A DNA stretch of 64,000 nt from Achromobacter sp. (GCF_032102605.1 NZ_DAMDGT010000002.1:55113-119112), one strand, 5' to 3'. Numbered from the stretch's first letter, positions 4,505 through 55,707 are shown. Translations and numbers: made by a program. Notes: generated by a model not told the origin, from the sequence alone.

Positions 4505-5942
4505 TTATTTTGTAAAGCGTATAGCGACGACTTTTAGAGATCGGCACCAACCGCTCTCTCACGCTTTCGTCGATTAAGAACTCCTTTCCGTTTGGAAGTG
4601 CTACAAATGCAGCTTCACCCTTCTCCAAAGACAGCTTTTCCAACTCGCTCGGAACAATTAGCTCAGCCGTGCCGCCCGAATAGAATCGCGCCGAGAAAGG
4701 CCGGCTATACACAAAGTAAAGCTTCTGACCTTCACTCATCTGAGATTTGGCGACGGCCACTAATTGCTTCTCTGTTTTGAGCTTTGTGGGCGCCGTAAGC
4801 GAGACCAGCCCGAGACTAATTGCCGCTGTTGGCACTAGTGCTCCCGTGATTACCAAGATCCGGGCTAGACGCGGCACCGCTTCTGCAGGCGATAGTTCTT
4901 TGGCGAGCATTGCAAGAAGCAGCGCAAAAGCTGGCAGACTGGGCAACACGTACGTCCAGAGTATGTTTCCAGAGAAGGTGAAGAAGGTCGGAGCGGCAAC
5001 GGCCCACAGCGCCAAGTAACCGACGACTGGCGACCGACACGCCTGACGAGCCCGTGCCCTGCGAGAGGCATTAGCCACTACCCAAACCCCTAGCAGAATC
5101 CCGGCCCATCCCCATGGGAACGAAGCCAGTAGCCACTCAATCCAAATGCTGCCAAAGGGTCGCTCGTGCGCAGTACCATACAGATCTCCCTGCCAACCCG
5201 CGTCTACGAACCGCAGGAAGTGCTCACCCACTAAAAAGTACTGGACGAATCCGGGGGTCTTTAGCTCAGCGCAGATGTACCAGGGAACGGTCAGAGCGAG
5301 CATCACCAACGTGCCTGTTAACCAAGGAAGATTGGTCAGGTGCACCATACGATCTCGGCGAAGCGCAAGCCAAGGAACGAGGACTATCGCCACGAGGACG
5401 AATGCGAGGGGCCCTTTCGACAACAGGCCAATTGCCATGCCCACAAAGAGCCCATAACGCCAGAATGGTGTCGGCGCTGTCGGCGCGATAAGGAACGCCA
5501 ACATTGAATAGGTGATCCCTAGCGCAAAAAAGGAATCCGTGAGCACAGCGCCGGCCGCGGCGAGCGGTAGCAGCATGGAAGACAGTATGATCGTGGTCCA
5601 TCGAGCAGCCTGTCGATCAACCAAGATAGCGGTCGCTCGGTAGAGGACTGCTGCGAGCGCAACCATCGCCAGGAATGAGGGGAATCTGACCGCGAATTCG
5701 GATCCGCCAAGGATCCTTATCCCCATCGCTTGGCTCCAGAATGAGAGCGGAGGCTTTCCCCAAAAAGGAACTCCAGGTTCGAACCAAGGAGTGATCCAAT
5801 CTCCGGTTTCCACCATCAGTCTCGCTATCTCAGCATATCTCGGCTCCGAGGTATCGATCAGTGGCATCGCAGCCATTGAAAAAAGCCGAGCAATAGCGAT
5901 GCCTGCCAGCCCCCAAAAGAACCACTTAGCCTTCAACTGCAT
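4497..5942 (-). CDS. ArnT/PMT-like glycosyltransferase family 39 (polytopic membrane protein)
   Basis: N-terminal DTSEPRYAEIARLMVETGDWITPWF...PFWGKPPL motif of ArnT/PMT_2 enzymes and about 11 predicted TM segments. Start moved to MQLKAKWFFW (5942) to reduce overlap with the GT2 gene. Confidence 0.8.
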   Translation of the reverse strand: MQLKAKWFFWGLAGIAIARLFSMAAMPLIDTSEPRYAEIARLMVETGDWITPWFEPGVPFWGKPPLSFWSQAMGIRILGGSEFAVRFPSFLAMVALAAVLYRATAILVDRQAARWTTIILSSMLLPLAAAGAVLTDSFFALGITYSMLAFLIAPTAPTPFWRYGLFVGMAIGLLSKGPLAFVLVAIVLVPWLALRRDRMVHLTNLPWLTGTLVMLALTVPWYICAELKTPGFVQYFLVGEHFLRFVDAGWQGDLYGTAHERPFGSIWIEWLLASFPWGWAGILLGVWVVANASRRARARQACRSPVVGYLALWAVAAPTFFTFSGNILWTYVLPSLPAFALLLAMLAKELSPAEAVPRLARILVITGALVPTAAISLGLVSLTAPTKLKTEKQLVAVAKSQMSEGQKLYFVYSRPFSARFYSGGTAELIVPSELEKLSLEKGEAAFVALPNGKEFLIDESVRERLVPISKSRRYTLYKING

Positions 5943-48836: not shown

Positions 48837-49940
48837 TTGACCCTGGCGATGTTAACATTTAGAGGTGTCAACCATCTGATTTATATAAATCTTATGATAA
48901 AAAATCGATCAGATCTCAGCCCGATTGGTCGCGGGGAAGACCTCCGGATGCTCTGCCGCCTGTACGTCCAACATCGGGGAACCGAGCAAGAAAAGCAGCT
49001 TTCTGACCAAATCGCGCGGCTCGTTCTGACCAACCCAGACATCCGGGCGATCGCCTGGAGCGCCCTCCGGCGCTACGGGCATCTGGGAAGCGATCGACTG
49101 GAAGAGCTGTTGAGCGAACTCGCGGCGGTCGTCGTCATCCGGCTTCTACCGCGAATGCGGGATCCCGATGCCATATGGGGCGCGCTCAAGGGCTGCGCAC
49201 GCAACCTCGTCCTTGACTACACGCGCAATCCGTACGATTCCGAGCTGCCCTTCACGGCGGACCTGGACGACCCCAAGGTCGGGGCCGCGCTTGTACCTGT
49301 AGAATCGGATACTCTCCGCCTCGATACGACCATGATGGCCAAGAAAGCCCACGCACAACTCGCCGCAGCCCTGGCCGCGCCCCCAGCGCGCGAAGATTGG
49401 ATCCCGGTGCCGATTCCCCCGTTGGACGGCCAACTACCCGGGGCGCCCATCCCCCTGGCCGAGCTATCCTCGCTGCCGGCGAAGCCGACACGCGCCCCCC
49501 GGACAGCGAAAATCGCATCCGCAGGGCAGCTTGAGCTGCGCGAGATCAAGTCCAAGCTCCAGATGACAATTCCCGAACTGGCCTCGGCGCTGGGGAGCAA
49601 TCCGAACACGCTCAGCGCCTACATGAAGGGCATCGCCCCCCTACCGGATGAAGTGCTGGAACGGGCGCGCTTGGTGTTCCGCGCAAAGTTCGACCAAGTC
49701 AAGCGGCAAAACGACCGGTGGAAGCAAATCGCGGGCAAGAGCGGCAGCATGGCGAAGATGATCGCCGAATGGAAGGAGCGCGCAGGCGTCCGGACGAACC
49801 GTGAGCTCGCCCAGATACTCGACGTGTCTGAAACCACCATCACGCGCTGGAGCCAAGACCTCAACATTCCCCCGCCCCACCGTATGCGCAAGTACGACGG
49901 GCTTGTCGACGCCGCCGGCGGCAGCGCCTCGAAGACCTAG
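48837..49940 (+). CDS. Putative transcription regulator (sigma-70 region-2-like N-terminus, two C-terminal HTH segments)
   Basis: AVVVIRLLPRMRDPDAIWGALKGCARNLVLDYTRN, then MTIPELASALGSNPNTLSAYMKG and RTNRELAQILDVSETTITRWSQ. Start uncertain (MIKNRS at 48897 is possible). Confidence 0.5.
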   Translation: MTLAMLTFRGVNHLIYINLMIKNRSDLSPIGRGEDLRMLCRLYVQHRGTEQEKQLSDQIARLVLTNPDIRAIAWSALRRYGHLGSDRLEELLSELAAVVVIRLLPRMRDPDAIWGALKGCARNLVLDYTRNPYDSELPFTADLDDPKVGAALVPVESDTLRLDTTMMAKKAHAQLAAALAAPPAREDWIPVPIPPLDGQLPGAPIPLAELSSLPAKPTRAPRTAKIASAGQLELREIKSKLQMTIPELASALGSNPNTLSAYMKGIAPLPDEVLERARLVFRAKFDQVKRQNDRWKQIAGKSGSMAKMIAEWKERAGVRTNRELAQILDVSETTITRWSQDLNIPPPHRMRKYDGLVDAAGGSASKT

Positions 49941-50689
49941 GGGTGCGGCCCGCCCCCAGACAGGCCGCTGCGCTCCAACACCCCCTCCATCTCGACCAGC
50001 CGTCCCAACTCTTGAAGCTTGGATGTCGGGGCGAACACAACGCTTGACCCCCCCCCGATTGCCCCTCCGGTTGCAGAGATCGAGAGGAGACCGGTGCGGA
50101 GCAAAGCCCCTCTGACCGCTTCAAAGTCGCCCCATCGAGCGGTGTCGGGCCCATAAATGCCTTGATACACCGCCGATGCCAACTCCACCAGTCGGGCCGT
50201 GCGCAAGTCGGCAGGCGCATGGCGCAGATATCCGGCCAAAACGACAATCTCGTCTGAAGTCAATCCGGCCAGGATATCTGCCCAACGGTAGAACTCGTCG
50301 GCATATACCGCGTCGTGTGCAAGTTGGCCAGCGAGAATGGCCGCCAGCATGCGCAGATTGATTCGTCCGACCCCCTCACGCACTGCCCGCGCGTAGCGCA
50401 CCGTGATTGCCGCGAACTCTTCCAGCTCAACATTTTCCGGCGTCGCCCGCCCCGCCCTTAGCTCCCCAAGCATGATTTCCCGGGCTTCCTGCGCCTTGCG
50501 GGCGTAGTGAGTCTGAAGCGCGGCCTTTGCCGTGGCGCTAAGGACCGCCGCCCCCGGAATACATAGCGCCGCGAGCGTATCCGATATCGCTGCGCCAAGG
50601 TAGTCAGCGACATTGCTCTCGACAGCCGGTCGTACGGGTGCGGCAGCGCGGGTAGCCGCGCCGCCGTGGGACGTTTTAGGTATTGCCAC
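49937..50689 (-). CDS. Hypothetical protein, partner of the KAP NTPase
   Basis: 250-aa ORF 36 nt downstream of the KAP gene on the same strand. Helical, Ala-rich, no recognised motif. Confidence 0.5.
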   Translation of the reverse strand: MAIPKTSHGGAATRAAAPVRPAVESNVADYLGAAISDTLAALCIPGAAVLSATAKAALQTHYARKAQEAREIMLGELRAGRATPENVELEEFAAITVRYARAVREGVGRINLRMLAAILAGQLAHDAVYADEFYRWADILAGLTSDEIVVLAGYLRHAPADLRTARLVELASAVYQGIYGPDTARWGDFEAVRGALLRTGLLSISATGGAIGGGSSVVFAPTSKLQELGRLVEMEGVLERSGLSGGGPHP

Positions 50690-50725: not shown

Positions 50726-52975
50726 CTACGCGTCTGCCCCTGGAGCAGACTTGGCTGCTTGCTCAAGTACAGCTTTGTGAATGGATGCAAATTGGTGCGC
50801 GACCTTTCTCGCCGAACTACCGTCAGAGTGATACTCCGGCGTGTCTAGCTCTGCACCGTAACGCTCCCGCAGGTTCTCCATGACGAAGTCGGGTGAGATA
50901 CAGGATGCGATGGAATCATAGTTACCTCGTTGCAAAAATGACCGGACTGGCATTCCACTTGCCATCTCCCACCCTTCCCCGACATAGGTGTCGAGGAACA
51001 CATCTATGCTAACTGGGTCGTGCTCGAAGATCCCTCGTAGGTACGCCTCGACCTCATCTTTACCGCGCCCCTTCTGCCAATCCCAATAGAGCCCTGGGGC
51101 GTCCATTGGCGTCGTTAGGAAAAGCGGACCTTCAGCGCTTGCGTCTCGAACTCTGCCGGCGAATAACTCGTAGATGGCATCGTTTGCGTCGTCTGGCAAG
51201 ACGCGATGCGCCTCCGGCTTGTCCGGATAGTGAGTGAGCCATCTAACGCACTCGCTGCCCAAAGCCAACGGCTGCGCAGCTTCGACGACCGCCTTCACCG
51301 CATCGAGCCGGTGCGCCATCGCGATCTGCCTCATTAGTTGAGATACGAGGATAGCCGCTTGCAGGAAGGTGCCCCCCATGACATAGGGCCCACGCTCTCG
51401 CGGAAGCATCTCGCCGTTCCGAACTATCGCGAGCGCCAAAGGAAGTGCTGCGATTTCGTCGACGTCCTCGGCCCGGTCCCGAAGCCTCTCAATCAATCGC
51501 GGCATCGCCCGATCGGAGTATTTGCTCAAGATCGCACGTTGCGCCTCTGGATCACCCGCCGCTAACGAAGCGATTAGATCGGCAATTCCGCTATCGGCAA
51601 TGTCGCCTTCCGGTACCCCGTAAACAAAGTAGCGTTTGAAATAGCGGCTCGAACACAAGCGTTGCTCTGCCGTCCACTGCTTATCCCATTCCGGGCCGTA
51701 CGTCATTGTGTCGACACGCGGGAAAAGCGGTACCAACAGCCGTCGCCTAACAATGTCGCGCTCCTTTGCCGTAGAGAGTGGCATAGCAGCTGCCAGGACC
51801 TCGTCTAAGGGCGACGGCTGGGCTTGCAGTGGGTTACGCACACCGTCGCGGGGCTCGCCTTGTAGGAACATATCTGGCTCGTCCCGTATTGCAATGTATA
51901 GCCGGGGATACAGTAGGCGTAGTCCTTCAATCAACATGAACTCGGCAATGTTCACCTCGCCCTTTACAAGGGGCAGCGAAAACATGAGAGCGTTGATGTA
52001 CTGTTTTGCAAGCCGCGGCGTTTCTAGTTTCGGCTCCAGACCGTCCACAAACGGGCGCATGAACTTGTCAACTTGCGCCTGGTCGATTGATATGTCGGCT
52101 TGCTGTAAAGCGCGGTCCACCCCTTCGAGGGTTATCTTTCGAAGACTTAGGCGGTCGGCCGGCGGCAAGTGCAGAGGTACTTGAATGATCTTCTCAAGGA
52201 ATGCACGACCTGCCTCGGCGCCCCCCGCTCCATACCGTTCACCGAGCGCAGCGGAAACCACCTCGTCATCAAACGCCAGCACGTAACATGTGTACTTAAA
52301 GCTAGCCGACAACTTGACCAGCTTGAAGATCGCGTGTGTCTCGTTCCTGTCCAGGCGATCGATGTCATCAATGAGAATGACGAGCCTTTTGCCGCTTTGG
52401 AGTAGCAACTCATCGATCTCGTCCTTTACCTCATCAAGGCCATCCTTCGATAAGGCCTCTCCGAGATTCTTAGCAGCTTCTCCAGGGTTGATCTCCACGC
52501 CCGGCACCGCTACCGATACCACCGACAGAAGTCCGCCGTACTTTCCCAATAGCGCAGCCGCCCGCTTTCTGAATGCGGGCTCCTTGCCCAGCCCTTTGGC
52601 CAGGGTCGCGAAGAAACCACGCAGGAGCGCATCCTCGGACGGAAAGTGCCATGGGTTGAATCGTACTGCTATGGAGTTCTCATGAAGACCAAGCGACTCC
52701 TCCATCATTTTGAGGACCGATGTTTTACCGTCTCCCCATGGCCCGTAGAGACCTATAACTACGCTTGAGGGATCTTCCCGTTTCGCTATGGTGTCTGCGA
52801 TTCTGGCAGCGAATGTCGCGCGCCCAAACCGATCCTGCGTCTTCGTCGCTATGGGATCGTCGGACACATATAGACTTCCGGTTTGCTCCTCAACCGTTCG
52901 CTGCGTCGAAGTAGCGTCGTTCCGACTGGGCGGGGACGCTGCTTTTCGTCTAAAACAGTTTTTAAACCAACCCAT
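50726..52975 (-). CDS. KAP-family P-loop NTPase
   Basis: Walker A IGLYGPWGDGKTSVL and Walker B/KAP signature LVILIDDIDRLD, with a long helical C-terminal region. 749 aa; no obvious TM insert. Confidence 0.8.
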   Translation of the reverse strand: MGWFKNCFRRKAASPPSRNDATSTQRTVEEQTGSLYVSDDPIATKTQDRFGRATFAARIADTIAKREDPSSVVIGLYGPWGDGKTSVLKMMEESLGLHENSIAVRFNPWHFPSEDALLRGFFATLAKGLGKEPAFRKRAAALLGKYGGLLSVVSVAVPGVEINPGEAAKNLGEALSKDGLDEVKDEIDELLLQSGKRLVILIDDIDRLDRNETHAIFKLVKLSASFKYTCYVLAFDDEVVSAALGERYGAGGAEAGRAFLEKIIQVPLHLPPADRLSLRKITLEGVDRALQQADISIDQAQVDKFMRPFVDGLEPKLETPRLAKQYINALMFSLPLVKGEVNIAEFMLIEGLRLLYPRLYIAIRDEPDMFLQGEPRDGVRNPLQAQPSPLDEVLAAAMPLSTAKERDIVRRRLLVPLFPRVDTMTYGPEWDKQWTAEQRLCSSRYFKRYFVYGVPEGDIADSGIADLIASLAAGDPEAQRAILSKYSDRAMPRLIERLRDRAEDVDEIAALPLALAIVRNGEMLPRERGPYVMGGTFLQAAILVSQLMRQIAMAHRLDAVKAVVEAAQPLALGSECVRWLTHYPDKPEAHRVLPDDANDAIYELFAGRVRDASAEGPLFLTTPMDAPGLYWDWQKGRGKDEVEAYLRGIFEHDPVSIDVFLDTYVGEGWEMASGMPVRSFLQRGNYDSIASCISPDFVMENLRERYGAELDTPEYHSDGSSARKVAHQFASIHKAVLEQAAKSAPGADA

Positions 52976-53045: not shown

Positions 53046-53639
53046 CTAAGCTGCGCAAGCATGCGGATCGAGCCTCGTGCCACTTATCGCGGGCAAAGAT
53101 TCACCCAGGGCCGAAGCAACATCCACATACAGCTGAACGATGGCATGGTGAAAGGCTGTACCGCGCTCCACCTTGCCCTCCATCACTTCCACATCGAGCT
53201 CTGCAAACGGGGTGTCTTTGTTACTCACAACGAACGCGCGGATCCTCTTCTCCATGTCTCCCGCGTCGACCTTCCCCCGGCTTCCAACGACCTCCAGCAG
53301 ACGAGATAGCTGACGGGGCGCCTCCACACCATAGGTATGCGCGATCTGGTTGCGGCAATCGTTCAGGGTGCGCAGCGCCGACCAAGGATATGCATTCCGT
53401 CGGAAACAGAATTGTTTGACTAGCATGTCAAGCTTGTCGCTAAAACCCTTGCGATAGAGCTTCCTTTGGTGCACCTTCCTCAACAGCGCGTGCGCCATCA
53501 GACTTTCAATGAAAAGGTGCGCCAGTAGAATTGGGCCGACCGAAGACGGCCGCTCCATTAGGAACAAGTCTCTCGCCCGCCGAACATTAAGGGCGGAGAG
53601 TTCCCTCGGGCTGCGTTGTACGGATTCTGGTTTTTGCAT
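53046..53639 (-). CDS. HEPN-like protein (Rx4H motif RNQIAH)
   Basis: 197 aa, all-helical appearance. N-terminal helix LFIESLMAHAL, and LNDCRNQIAH encoded at 53337..53354. Confidence 0.55.
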   Translation of the reverse strand: MQKPESVQRSPRELSALNVRRARDLFLMERPSSVGPILLAHLFIESLMAHALLRKVHQRKLYRKGFSDKLDMLVKQFCFRRNAYPWSALRTLNDCRNQIAHTYGVEAPRQLSRLLEVVGSRGKVDAGDMEKRIRAFVVSNKDTPFAELDVEVMEGKVERGTAFHHAIVQLYVDVASALGESLPAISGTRLDPHACAA

Positions 53640-53844
53640 GTCGAACTCTGATATATCGGGATACTAGAATACAAAAAATATCAAGTTGATACAATTCATC
53701 ACTGCCCGCTTGGGCATTGGTCTTGTCTTCCGTAGGGACTACGAACTCTCCGCCTTGCAAGTCAATCACTCTTAACAAGACCGTAACAATGCTGGGGCTC
53801 TTCGTTTAAACGCCCGGTTCAGCAGCTACCCATAACCGCTCCGT

Positions 53845-54384
53845 TTAGTCCGGGTCCGGGAACTCCAGGTGCATCCCAGTGACAAGGCATTTCACATAGT
53901 CAACCTCATCTTGCAGGGCCTTCGGGAAGTTTGCGGCGAACCTCATGAGTTCTGCGGAAACAGCATCTGCCTCGTCTGCAAATTTCTGAACATCCTTCAG
54001 CTCGTATGCCGTATCTTTCTGCTGGTGAAGAATCGTCGAGCTAACGTAGGCATCCGGTCCGTGTCCAAATGCTTGTATAAAAAGGGGATTGTGCGCAATT
54101 GCGTTTCGATTGCTCATAACGGGCCAGTACTTTCGCTTCTGCTCTTTCAGGCCCTTAGAAAGAGTGTCAGATAGGTGGTTTTTTGATATCTCAGATATTC
54201 GCCCAACGCGTAGAGAAAACTCCTCCTTGCGCCAAATCTCGATGTCTTCGGGTGCCAAAACTGCCAAAAGCTCGTTAACAGACCTCTCGATGCTTGCGGC
54301 TGCCAGGATCAGGCGCCCCACGGGATTTATCCACTGGTCTTGTTCGGACTTCGCCAAGGCCATGAACTCTTCGGACGACATCAT
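53845..54384 (-). CDS. HEPN-like protein (Rx4H motif RNAIAH), visibly lower-GC gene
   Basis: 179 aa. N-terminal helix AAASIERSVNELL, and MSNRNAIAH encoded at 54091..54108. AAGGA RBS before the ATG. Confidence 0.55.
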   Translation of the reverse strand: MMSSEEFMALAKSEQDQWINPVGRLILAAASIERSVNELLAVLAPEDIEIWRKEEFSLRVGRISEISKNHLSDTLSKGLKEQKRKYWPVMSNRNAIAHNPLFIQAFGHGPDAYVSSTILHQQKDTAYELKDVQKFADEADAVSAELMRFAANFPKALQDEVDYVKCLVTGMHLEFPDPD

Positions 54385-54646
54385 GTTTTCTATCCTTTTT
54401 ATGGGTAATTGCGCTCGAGATGGACGACATCAGCGCGCCGTCATGGGACACGAGATGATCGGGGATGATAACCGGATGCCCACCCGCAAAAGTGAAGTCC
54501 ACGTGAGGGAAAATTCCACACTTATGCGCGCCGTAAATTGTTGCCACCTGGAGGATCTTGGCTGGCCCGGTTTCTGTGTCAAACCAGACTCCTTATAGAA
54601 TCCACCCCGTGTCACAAGACATTTAGAGAGAGGTAGGGGAATTTTC

Positions 54647-55129
54647 ATGCGCAAGATCGACATCAACAGTCGAGAGTATCAATGCTGGCACGAGTTAGGG
54701 CACGCCGTGGTCTGCATACACCTGGGAGGAACCGTTGATCTGGTCGAATTTCTGAACGACCAGCCCCACGCCCAGGGCATGGCACGCGCCAGGTGCAATA
54801 CGAACGAAGAAATTCGTTCTCACGTCCTCTGTGGCGGTTTCGCCGCGGAATTATTCTTGCTTCGAAATCAATTTTTGCCGTCGATTTCGGAGAAGGAAAT
54901 CGCTCAGATCATATTTAAGAACGCGACCAAAGACCGCGAAATGTACTGGCGCCGGGAACTTCAGCCTGATGAACAATTCACCCGCGAGGAAGATGAAATA
55001 TTTATGAATCACGCCACAGCAGTGATGCGGATAGTGGGGACGTACAAGAGCGCGATTCAAACTCTCGTGCCGGGATTGTTGGAAGCAGGAAGACTCGATG
55101 GAAAGTGCATCCAAGATGCGATGGGCTGA
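54647..55129 (+). CDS. Stand-alone FtsH/M41-like zinc metallopeptidase domain protein
   Basis: CWHELGHAVVCIHLGG (HExxH encoded at 54689..54703) followed by LCGGFAAELFLL, paralleling the M41 HEAGHA...GGRAAEE pattern. 160 aa, no ATPase domain. Confidence 0.5.
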   Translation: MRKIDINSREYQCWHELGHAVVCIHLGGTVDLVEFLNDQPHAQGMARARCNTNEEIRSHVLCGGFAAELFLLRNQFLPSISEKEIAQIIFKNATKDREMYWRRELQPDEQFTREEDEIFMNHATAVMRIVGTYKSAIQTLVPGLLEAGRLDGKCIQDAMG

Positions 55130-55170: not shown

Positions 55171-55209
55171 GAAGAAAAAAAGCCCGCCCTTCCAAAAGAA
55201 AGGCGGGCT
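55171..55209 (-). terminator. Rho-independent terminator after ssb
   Basis: AGCCCGCC / GGCGGGCT stem with an A-rich run on the plus strand (T run on minus). Confidence 0.7.
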
Positions 55210-55239
55210 TTAACCAACAAAAAGTTGGCTTAGTAGGTT

Positions 55240-55707
55240 TTAGAACGGAATGTCATCATCCATATCTGCGAGCGAGGAGCCGGCGGCCTGTTGCTGCGTG
55301 GCGGGGCGCGCATTGCGTTGTTGCGCCGGTGCGGGGCTGGGTTGCTCGTCGCCCCCGCTTTCGCCACCCCCACGTCCGCCCAGCATCTGCATCTGGTCTC
55401 CGACGACCTCAGTGCTGTACCTGTCCGCCCCCGTGTCCTTGTCCTGCCATTTCCGCGTCTTGAGTCGGCCCTCAATGTAGACCTGACGGCCCTTCTTGAG
55501 ATACTCGCCTGCGACCTCAGCGAGGCGGTTGTACAGAACGACTCGATGCCACTCCGTCTCCTCGCGGCGTTCCCCGGAGGACTTGTCTTTCCACTGCGAC
55601 GTCGTGGCGATAGACAGATTGCAGATTGCGGCGCCGTCCGGCGAGTAGCGCACCTCGGGATCTCGTCCCAAGTTCCCAACCAAAATCACTTTGTTGACCG
55701 ATGCCAT
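55240..55707 (-). CDS. ssb: Single-stranded DNA-binding protein
   Basis: [21 protein letters not shown]...[32 protein letters not shown], a Gly/Gln-rich linker, and the C-terminal DDDIPF tip. Confidence 0.95.

Follow-up and report, generated by a model that had tools for sequence, protein, structure and literature searches.

Neighbouring predicted HEPN-like genes on an Achromobacter conjugative element: distant relatives brought together by insertion

HEPN domains carry their motif where helix 3 ends and runs into a loop, with a polar residue following the arginine and an acidic residue further upstream (PMC3710099). In the same survey Cthe_2314 is listed without operon partners, and a family called ‘integron cassette HEPN’ is represented by PDB 3jrt (PMC3710099). 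Esos, an integron cassette of V. cholerae with a HEPN-like domain only, protects against phage (10.1101/2024.07.02.601686), and an antiphage function has been demonstrated for KAP NTPases, which usually have effector regions fused to them (PMC13552941). Here we analyse a stretch of 64,000 nucleotides from Achromobacter sp. (GCF_032102605.1 NZ_DAMDGT010000002.1:55113-119112), referred to below as the window. It is part of an integrative and conjugative element (ICE), and two neighbouring open reading frames (ORFs) on its minus strand, A and B, each encode a protein with an RNxIAH motif and lie upstream of the gene for a PifA-like KAP NTPase. The original prediction, made from this DNA alone, saw in them a tandem pair forming a heterodimeric HEPN ribonuclease (RNase) with a composite active site. 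We find instead that A and B are distant homologues within one unannotated HEPN-like superfamily and that they are adjacent through recent insertion, not as partners.

The solo HEPN families Cthe_2314-like (PF18730), AbiU2 (PF18734) and RiboL-PSP (PF18735) give the best profile matches for the A/B group, all below the gathering score (at most ~14-18 bits, with cut-offs of ~27). They share with it the Rx4H motif, the asparagine after the arginine, the position of the motif at a helix end and an upstream glutamate, and on both sides the proteins are small (150-200 aa), mostly helical and carried on mobile elements. In contrast to these families, a W-x4-G...IE signature and an H-N-P after the motif are specific to the A/B group, and the model of B has a three-strand beta insert following the motif. 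Esos is comparable in kind, being a solo HEPN-like single-gene cassette, as are at least 12 of the distant genes of the B superfamily; unlike an integron cassette, the B of the window is not flanked by attC. The structure 3jrt was not recovered in profile searches against PDB sequences, nor was it among the 50 Foldseek matches listed. The HEPN-MNT (HepT/MntA; MNT, minimal nucleotidyltransferase) systems of type II/VII resemble A and B in having a small Rx4H protein that would be expected to dimerise, but there is no MNT gene beside A or B and no recurrent partner flanks the relatives of B. That this is not a canonical HEPN-MNT module had been recognised from the start, and it holds: no nucleotidyltransferase domain is found in the KAP protein or in the products of the nearby HExxH, 250-aa and 367-aa ORFs. 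The neighbour of A invites comparison with PifA of plasmid F: it matches the PADLOC model of PifA almost from end to end, has a hydrophobic segment separating its Walker A and B motifs, and is likewise carried by a conjugative element. In the descriptions of PifA and of those KAP NTPases that have been tested, one protein includes the effector region as a fused part. Described Pif/KAP systems have no upstream HEPN-like gene, whereas here A takes that place, in one lineage.

ORF A (53046..53639, minus strand) encodes 197 aa and ORF B (53845..54384, minus strand) 179 aa, just as had been called, with RNQIAH in A (R96..H101, 53337..53354) and RNAIAH in B (R93..H98, 54091..54108). The pattern RN.[ILV]AH occurs twice, in A and B only, among the 124,713 six-frame residues of the window and, judging from the sequences, the match is not due to chance. 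Direct BLASTP of A against B detected no similarity, and when the two shallow alignments were compared by hhalign the probability was no more than 0.5%; it took a broader profile of B to reveal the relationship. Comparison of the A family with the B superfamily then returned an hhalign score of 31.3 (E 9e-5), in an alignment that places VGPILLAHLFIES over IGRxILAFGxIE and keeps both RNxIAH motifs in register. None of 200 column shuffles reached this score, and it was reached by 4 of 200 in which the motif was fixed and the rest shuffled. With the motif masked, the N-terminal helices of A and B still aligned in register (E 0.029). A profile of seven A-like sequences, set against the B superfamily without the close homologues of B, gave an hhalign probability of 92.6% (E 4.7e-7), and an A-like protein of E. 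coli matched the hidden Markov model of the B superfamily with E 0.002. The hhalign results therefore show that the common layout of A and B, which the original prediction had pointed out, reflects real distant homology. Despite this homology the two proteins contrast in charge, A being strongly basic (pI 9.7) and B acidic (pI 5.2).

Close relatives of B number 23 (58-80% identity), and RNxIAHNP is invariant among them. A search of 1.8 billion representative proteins with the profile of B gave 67 matches, mostly of 150-190 aa, and 64 of these, at ~22% identity to B, make up the superfamily alignment used here. Its only invariant columns are G23, E33, R93, N94 and H98, while conservation exceeds 90% at W18, N99 and P100; the signature of the superfamily reads W-x4-G...I-E...R-N-x-I-A-H-(N-P). 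In the window the codon of E33, within the sequence SIERS, lies at 54286..54288 on the minus strand. The AlphaFold model of B is confident (pLDDT, the predicted local distance difference test, 92.6) and comprises helices 4-43, 45-51, 56-70, 73-97 and 129-170, with the beta insert (101-127) between the motif helix and the long C-terminal helix. G23 and E33 sit on the long N-terminal helix, and R93-H98 closes helix 73-97 at its C-terminal end, which is the placement seen in HEPN proteins. Searches of plasmids by tblastn with B and by megablast with the region gave no match; the superfamily consensus also gave none against plasmids, probably because of low-complexity masking. A viral scan gave one contig, and Foldseek of the B model against BFVD one unnamed viral protein only. 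Two homologues of B, P0009 and P0014 (L007 8001..8732), have a C-terminal extension of ~55-65 additional aa, ...DPMKAAFEAKYHRNWEDPSGDDMKAIWADAWAAAKA, which could have arisen by fusion to a small ORF downstream.

The family of A is very small, with 4 clusters in 5.8 billion proteins. A copy in Bordetella bronchiseptica has 58% identity, and Achromobacter marplatensis has near-identical copies of both A and B. The protein sequences of L011, L012 and the Bordetella locus L016 preserve the start ATG of A and its N-terminal 27 residues, and the full-length start (197 aa) is genuine; two homologues, P0002 and P0003, have been shortened by gene callers. By tblastn two more distant relatives with the layout of A were found, a Burkholderia plasmid protein (YIEDL...LNDCRNEMAH) and an E. 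coli island protein (FVEEL...LNKLRNALAH). None of the seven A-like proteins, the most divergent of which have 26% identity, departs from R96, N97, A100 or H101. In the alignment E45 of A (in FIESL, codon 53505..53507, minus strand) falls opposite E33, which is invariant in the B superfamily. The E. coli gene (190 aa, RNALAH; L078 4908..6332, L085 7001..10066) is part of an island situated right after tRNA-Leu, which also encodes a DUF3800 protein, has a 137-aa ORF and carries a gene for a small serine recombinase. Of 5,426 complete E. coli genomes, 42 have this island. Small serine recombinases have been proposed to mark defence loci (PMC13552941), and this island is a possible candidate for an uncharacterised defence module.

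Several features place A and B with HEPN proteins. Both have the Rx4-6H signature with a polar residue after the arginine; this residue is an invariant asparagine in both families, and the arginine and histidine are conserved in the divergent homologues of A (7) and of B (64) alike. An upstream acidic residue is present in the B superfamily as E33; the Ex3[KR] form of the acidic motif is absent. The recurrent sub-threshold Pfam matches among the 64 members of the B superfamily were almost all to families of the HEPN clan: Cthe2314 (9), Csm6_HEPN (5), RiboL-PSP (4) and Csx1_HEPN (2), with one member each matching MAE_28990, Apea and HepT-like (the last with E 0.05). The consensus matched AbiU2 (0.0018 over 100 residues) and Cthe2314 (0.0078), also below threshold, and the sole Pfam matches of the A-like proteins, likewise sub-threshold, were to RiboL-PSP and Cthe2314. 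Weak, sub-threshold PADLOC matches were mostly to Csx1, CARF_HEPN, Cas13-ApeA, Csm6 and RTasHEPN, the last being matched by A with E 0.0099. In the Pfam/NCBIfam scan of A and B themselves no family appeared at E<=1. For the superfamily, the models of Pfam, NCBIfam, PADLOC and PHROG all stay below threshold, and it has no solved structure. The expectation that profile searches would lead to HEPN families was borne out in that recurrent weak matches point to this clan; it was not in that none lies above threshold. A and B are probably both HEPN-like. For B and its superfamily we rate HEPN membership as probable, though not demonstrated, because the matches are sub-threshold and partly driven by the motif and no solved HEPN structure was found.

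The distribution of the two genes shows how they came to be neighbours. A and B are found side by side only here and in a genome copy that is 99% identical to the window. At six loci (L011-L016) A lies directly upstream of the KAP gene with B absent, the order being ssb, a remnant of the HExxH ORF, A and KAP in L011, HExxH, A and KAP in L012-L015, and ssb, A and KAP in the Bordetella locus L016. B is found without an A-like ORF or a KAP gene in seven other contexts (L001-6, L007/8, L009/10, L087, L088, L089-91 and L092), among unrelated neighbours, and DNA homology between these loci ends at the ORF borders. The proposal that A and B are effectors of one system with the KAP NTPase is not supported by these arrangements. 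That homologues should never be found as pairs had been named in advance as an outcome counting against the prediction, and the loci compared here show this outcome. Upstream of the homologues of B are proteins of 461, 356, 343 and 333 aa, and downstream are trypsin-like and PNP_UDP proteins and proteins of 266, 283, 321 and 207 aa; no mutual similarity was found among these neighbours across contexts, because of which a module of B with a peptidase was considered and dropped.

In the window B lies on a 944-bp segment (53698..54641, minus strand; GC content 0.514) that is absent from the collinear loci L012/L014 and from L011. The GC content of the B ORF is 0.509, that of A and of the KAP gene 0.564 each, that of ssb 0.622 and that of the 250-aa ORF 0.640. 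Neither terminal repeats nor a target duplication were found flanking the segment. The right-hand junction, 53697/53698, is shared by the window and the A loci without B. The same junction serves three arrangements of the interval from ssb to A, those of the window, L011 and L012/L014, which suggests a hotspot for cargo recombination; no repeats or att-like site were found there. Between the junction and A, the upstream region 53640..53697 (GAATTGTATCAACTTGATATTTTTTGTATTCT..., minus strand) is conserved in loci without B and probably holds the expression signals of A and KAP themselves. A scan for sigma-70 consensus promoters called none, this region included, and a terminator scan called none between B, A and KAP.

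The distant relatives of B are likewise found alone. Among 60 metagenomic loci with distant genes of the B superfamily there was no convincing second copy, a single weak and partial one lying two genes upstream in L029, and no recurrent neighbour family. In many cases the locus is an array of small ORFs, all on one strand, split by canonical attC sites (GCCTAAC...GTTAGGC hairpins), which are near-identical, 57-129 nt long and form strong hairpins; L052 (551..2087), for instance, has four 88-nt attC sites. With a RYYYAAC ... GTTRRRY hairpin bounding the ORF as the criterion, at least 12 of the distant genes are single-gene integron cassettes (L052, L020-22, L029, L037, L038, L042, L051, L053, L065 and L069). 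No attC-like site was found on either strand of the window between 53500 and 54800.

Two of the contexts of B contain other genes of note. In L002 a 273-aa protein (4926..5747) without a Pfam match has another Rx4H motif, RSRAVHG, ~1 kb downstream of the B homologue and a Trypsin_2-like gene. In L089 (3131..8486), and also in L090 and L091, the B homologue is flanked by genes for an 845-aa DEAD/ResIII helicase and a 575-aa PNP_UDP_1 protein and lies downstream of an HTH-Peptidase_M78 regulator (HTH, helix-turn-helix), a setting that looks like a defence island.

The KAP NTPase gene (50726..52975, minus strand, 749 aa) starts 70 nt downstream of A on the same strand, confirming the gene order that had been reported. 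Its product matches Pfam KAP_NTPase (PF07693) with 2.8e-48 (165 bits against a cut-off of 20) and PADLOC PifA with 9.6e-74 over profile positions 7-660 of 720. Walker A is GPWGDGKT at residue 78 and Walker B is VILIDD at 199, with the hydrophobic segment (139-157) between them. In this lineage the KAP gene is preceded by A without exception, at a distance of 70-100 nt, and A equals it in GC content. A search of genomes with the KAP protein gave one locus only. The suggestion that co-occurrence with KAP NTPases be surveyed has a divided answer, A being linked to KAP in one ICE lineage and no such link extending to B or to distant PifA-like NTPases. A literature search returned no paper linking KAP NTPases to HEPN partners. 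On the Bacillus cereus plasmid pBFI_2 (L080 1..5202) a gene annotated as ‘HEPN domain-containing protein’ and a large HTH regulator precede a distant KAP NTPase, all on the same strand; this gives a hint, as an independent pointer, of a HEPN-KAP linkage, HEPN there being by annotation only.

The reading that we favour, with somewhat better than even confidence, is that A and B are two independent genes for predicted HEPN-like RNases, with a probable role in defence or abortive infection, B being a solo mobile gene and A going with KAP. By analogy with established HEPN biochemistry each protein would be a metal-independent RNase, forming a homodimer in which the two Rx4H motifs make up the active site and the glutamate of helix 1 assists. 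B is a self-contained mobile gene, since homology ends at the ORF borders, the neighbours vary and the distant relatives are often single-gene cassettes. It arrived on the low-GC segment of 944 bp, at a place in the conjugative element where the cargo varies, with ssb on one side and the A-KAP module on the other. Most likely B would act alone, as a latent toxin or an abortive-infection effector, for which the Esos cassette would be the precedent. A is the fixed upstream companion of the KAP gene and would most likely be an RNase effector or a regulatory subunit, and A and KAP together may constitute an NTPase-based anti-phage module.

A number of observations weigh against this reading. Toxicity would be expected of a solo RNase that is constitutively active, and for B there is no evident inhibitor. 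Neither A, B nor any of their relatives matches a curated HEPN model above threshold, the relatives and the consensus scoring 12-18 bits against curated cut-offs of 23-28, and the weak matches that were obtained are driven largely by the motif itself. Foldseek of the B model against the PDB gave no solved HEPN structure (best match E 0.43, TM ~0.2), and profile searches with five alignments against PDB sequences gave coiled-coil noise only. The AlphaFold model of A is unusable (pLDDT 47), and Foldseek of it against the PDB was, as expected, uninformative. The acidic residue at the position of E45 is glutamate in five of the seven A-like proteins and glutamine in the other two, the Bordetella protein and P0027, so that the conserved N-terminal acidic residue ascribed to both proteins stands for the B superfamily but not throughout the A-like proteins. 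As to the link of A with KAP, the synteny is confined to one ICE lineage in which flanking backbone genes are conserved too. The distant A-like genes have a DUF3800 protein or a 314-aa unknown protein as partner, and no ORF resembling A or B lies near the plasmid-borne PifA-like NTPases, which are at 22-45% identity.

A more ambitious proposal would make A and KAP a two-gene Pif-like system, in which KAP senses phage and switches on the RNase of A, and would see in the B superfamily a widespread and so far unrecognised class of RNase defence cassettes. The two genes would then be a split form of the architecture in which a KAP NTPase is fused to its effector, and the B superfamily would be single-gene defence cassettes exchanged by integrons and ICEs. 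We regard this as possible but tentative, and on the whole rather unlikely.

It is also doubtful, and we would call it unlikely, that the RNxIAH proteins are not nucleases at all but helical adaptors, sensors or regulators in which the R, N, H and E residues bind a ligand or a partner; such a protein might then be, for example, a nucleotide-binding or inhibitory subunit controlling the KAP NTPase, and B might be an anti-defence or immunity protein. That neither the solved HEPN structures nor the curated HEPN models are matched significantly is consistent with this, as are the unusually long helices of the B model (~40 residues), the coiled-coil-like nature of its best PDB matches, all of them insignificant, and the glutamine that replaces E45 in two homologues of A. 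An acidic B is atypical of an RNA-binding toxin, and solo cassettes without an antitoxin would fit a protein that is not toxic. Such a role is harder to reconcile with R, N and H being invariant across 64 sequences at ~22% identity, in the position and context of a catalytic HEPN motif, and with nearly all of the recurrent weak matches falling into one clan out of ~24,700 Pfam families.

The opposite charges of A and B and their adjacency would suit two diverged paralogues that work like a toxin and its antitoxin, basic A being neutralised by acidic B, or the recruitment of B to this place specifically to modulate A-KAP, and a common fold would permit a heterodimer that disrupts the homodimeric active site. 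We consider this very improbable: A is kept stably without B at all other loci, B retains all of the catalytic-type residues, unlike a degenerate inhibitor, and the relatives of B are solo genes.

Least probable of all, and hardly to be expected, is the originally predicted HEPN heterodimer of A and B with a composite active site in one three-gene system with the KAP NTPase, which the adjacency of the genes on one strand with no terminator called between them, a homology that could allow a common dimer interface and the complementary charges might seem to favour, but which is not supported because A and B occur apart, B is on an insert of differing GC content and the relatives are solo, and which is already contradicted by the distribution, the pair being confined to the window and its near-identical copy against six A-KAP loci without B, seven contexts of B without A or KAP, and one weak partial second copy in 60 superfamily loci.

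Since a heterodimeric HEPN pair is not supported, the significance of the locus is moderate. The A and B families are new, yet they belong within a very large and well-known superfamily and are found in typical mobile-element settings. What is gained is the definition of a previously unannotated HEPN-like superfamily with a clear signature and a mobile lifestyle, often as integron cassettes, and with it further candidates for defence or toxin cassettes that consist of a single gene. The lineage-specific pairing of A with a PifA-like KAP NTPase is a testable lead that could help to open up the mechanism of Pif/KAP systems.

The conjugative element to which the window belongs is also represented in it by genes for an F-type TraN, a DEAD helicase, a Toprim protein and a SprT-like protein. 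Between 50.7 and 55.7 kb, in minus-strand order, ssb comes first (55240..55707, minus strand). A strong terminator-like hairpin, with a 15-bp stem followed by a T run, lies 3' of it (55179..55211, minus strand) and isolates the cargo genes from transcription of the backbone. Divergent from B is the ORF for the 160-aa HExxH protein (54647..55129, plus strand; HELGH), the metallopeptidase matches of which are weak (M50B-like, 0.0024). In L012-L015 this ORF adjoins A; L011 has a truncated form of it, and the Bordetella locus L016 lacks it. The 250-aa ORF (49937..50689, minus strand) follows 36 nt after the KAP gene and has no family match; its GC content (0.64) resembles that of the ICE backbone and differs from that of KAP (0.564). 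It is convergent, with an overlap of 4 nt, with the gene for a 367-aa double-HTH protein (48837..49940, plus strand), and both genes are kept in the Bordetella locus L016.

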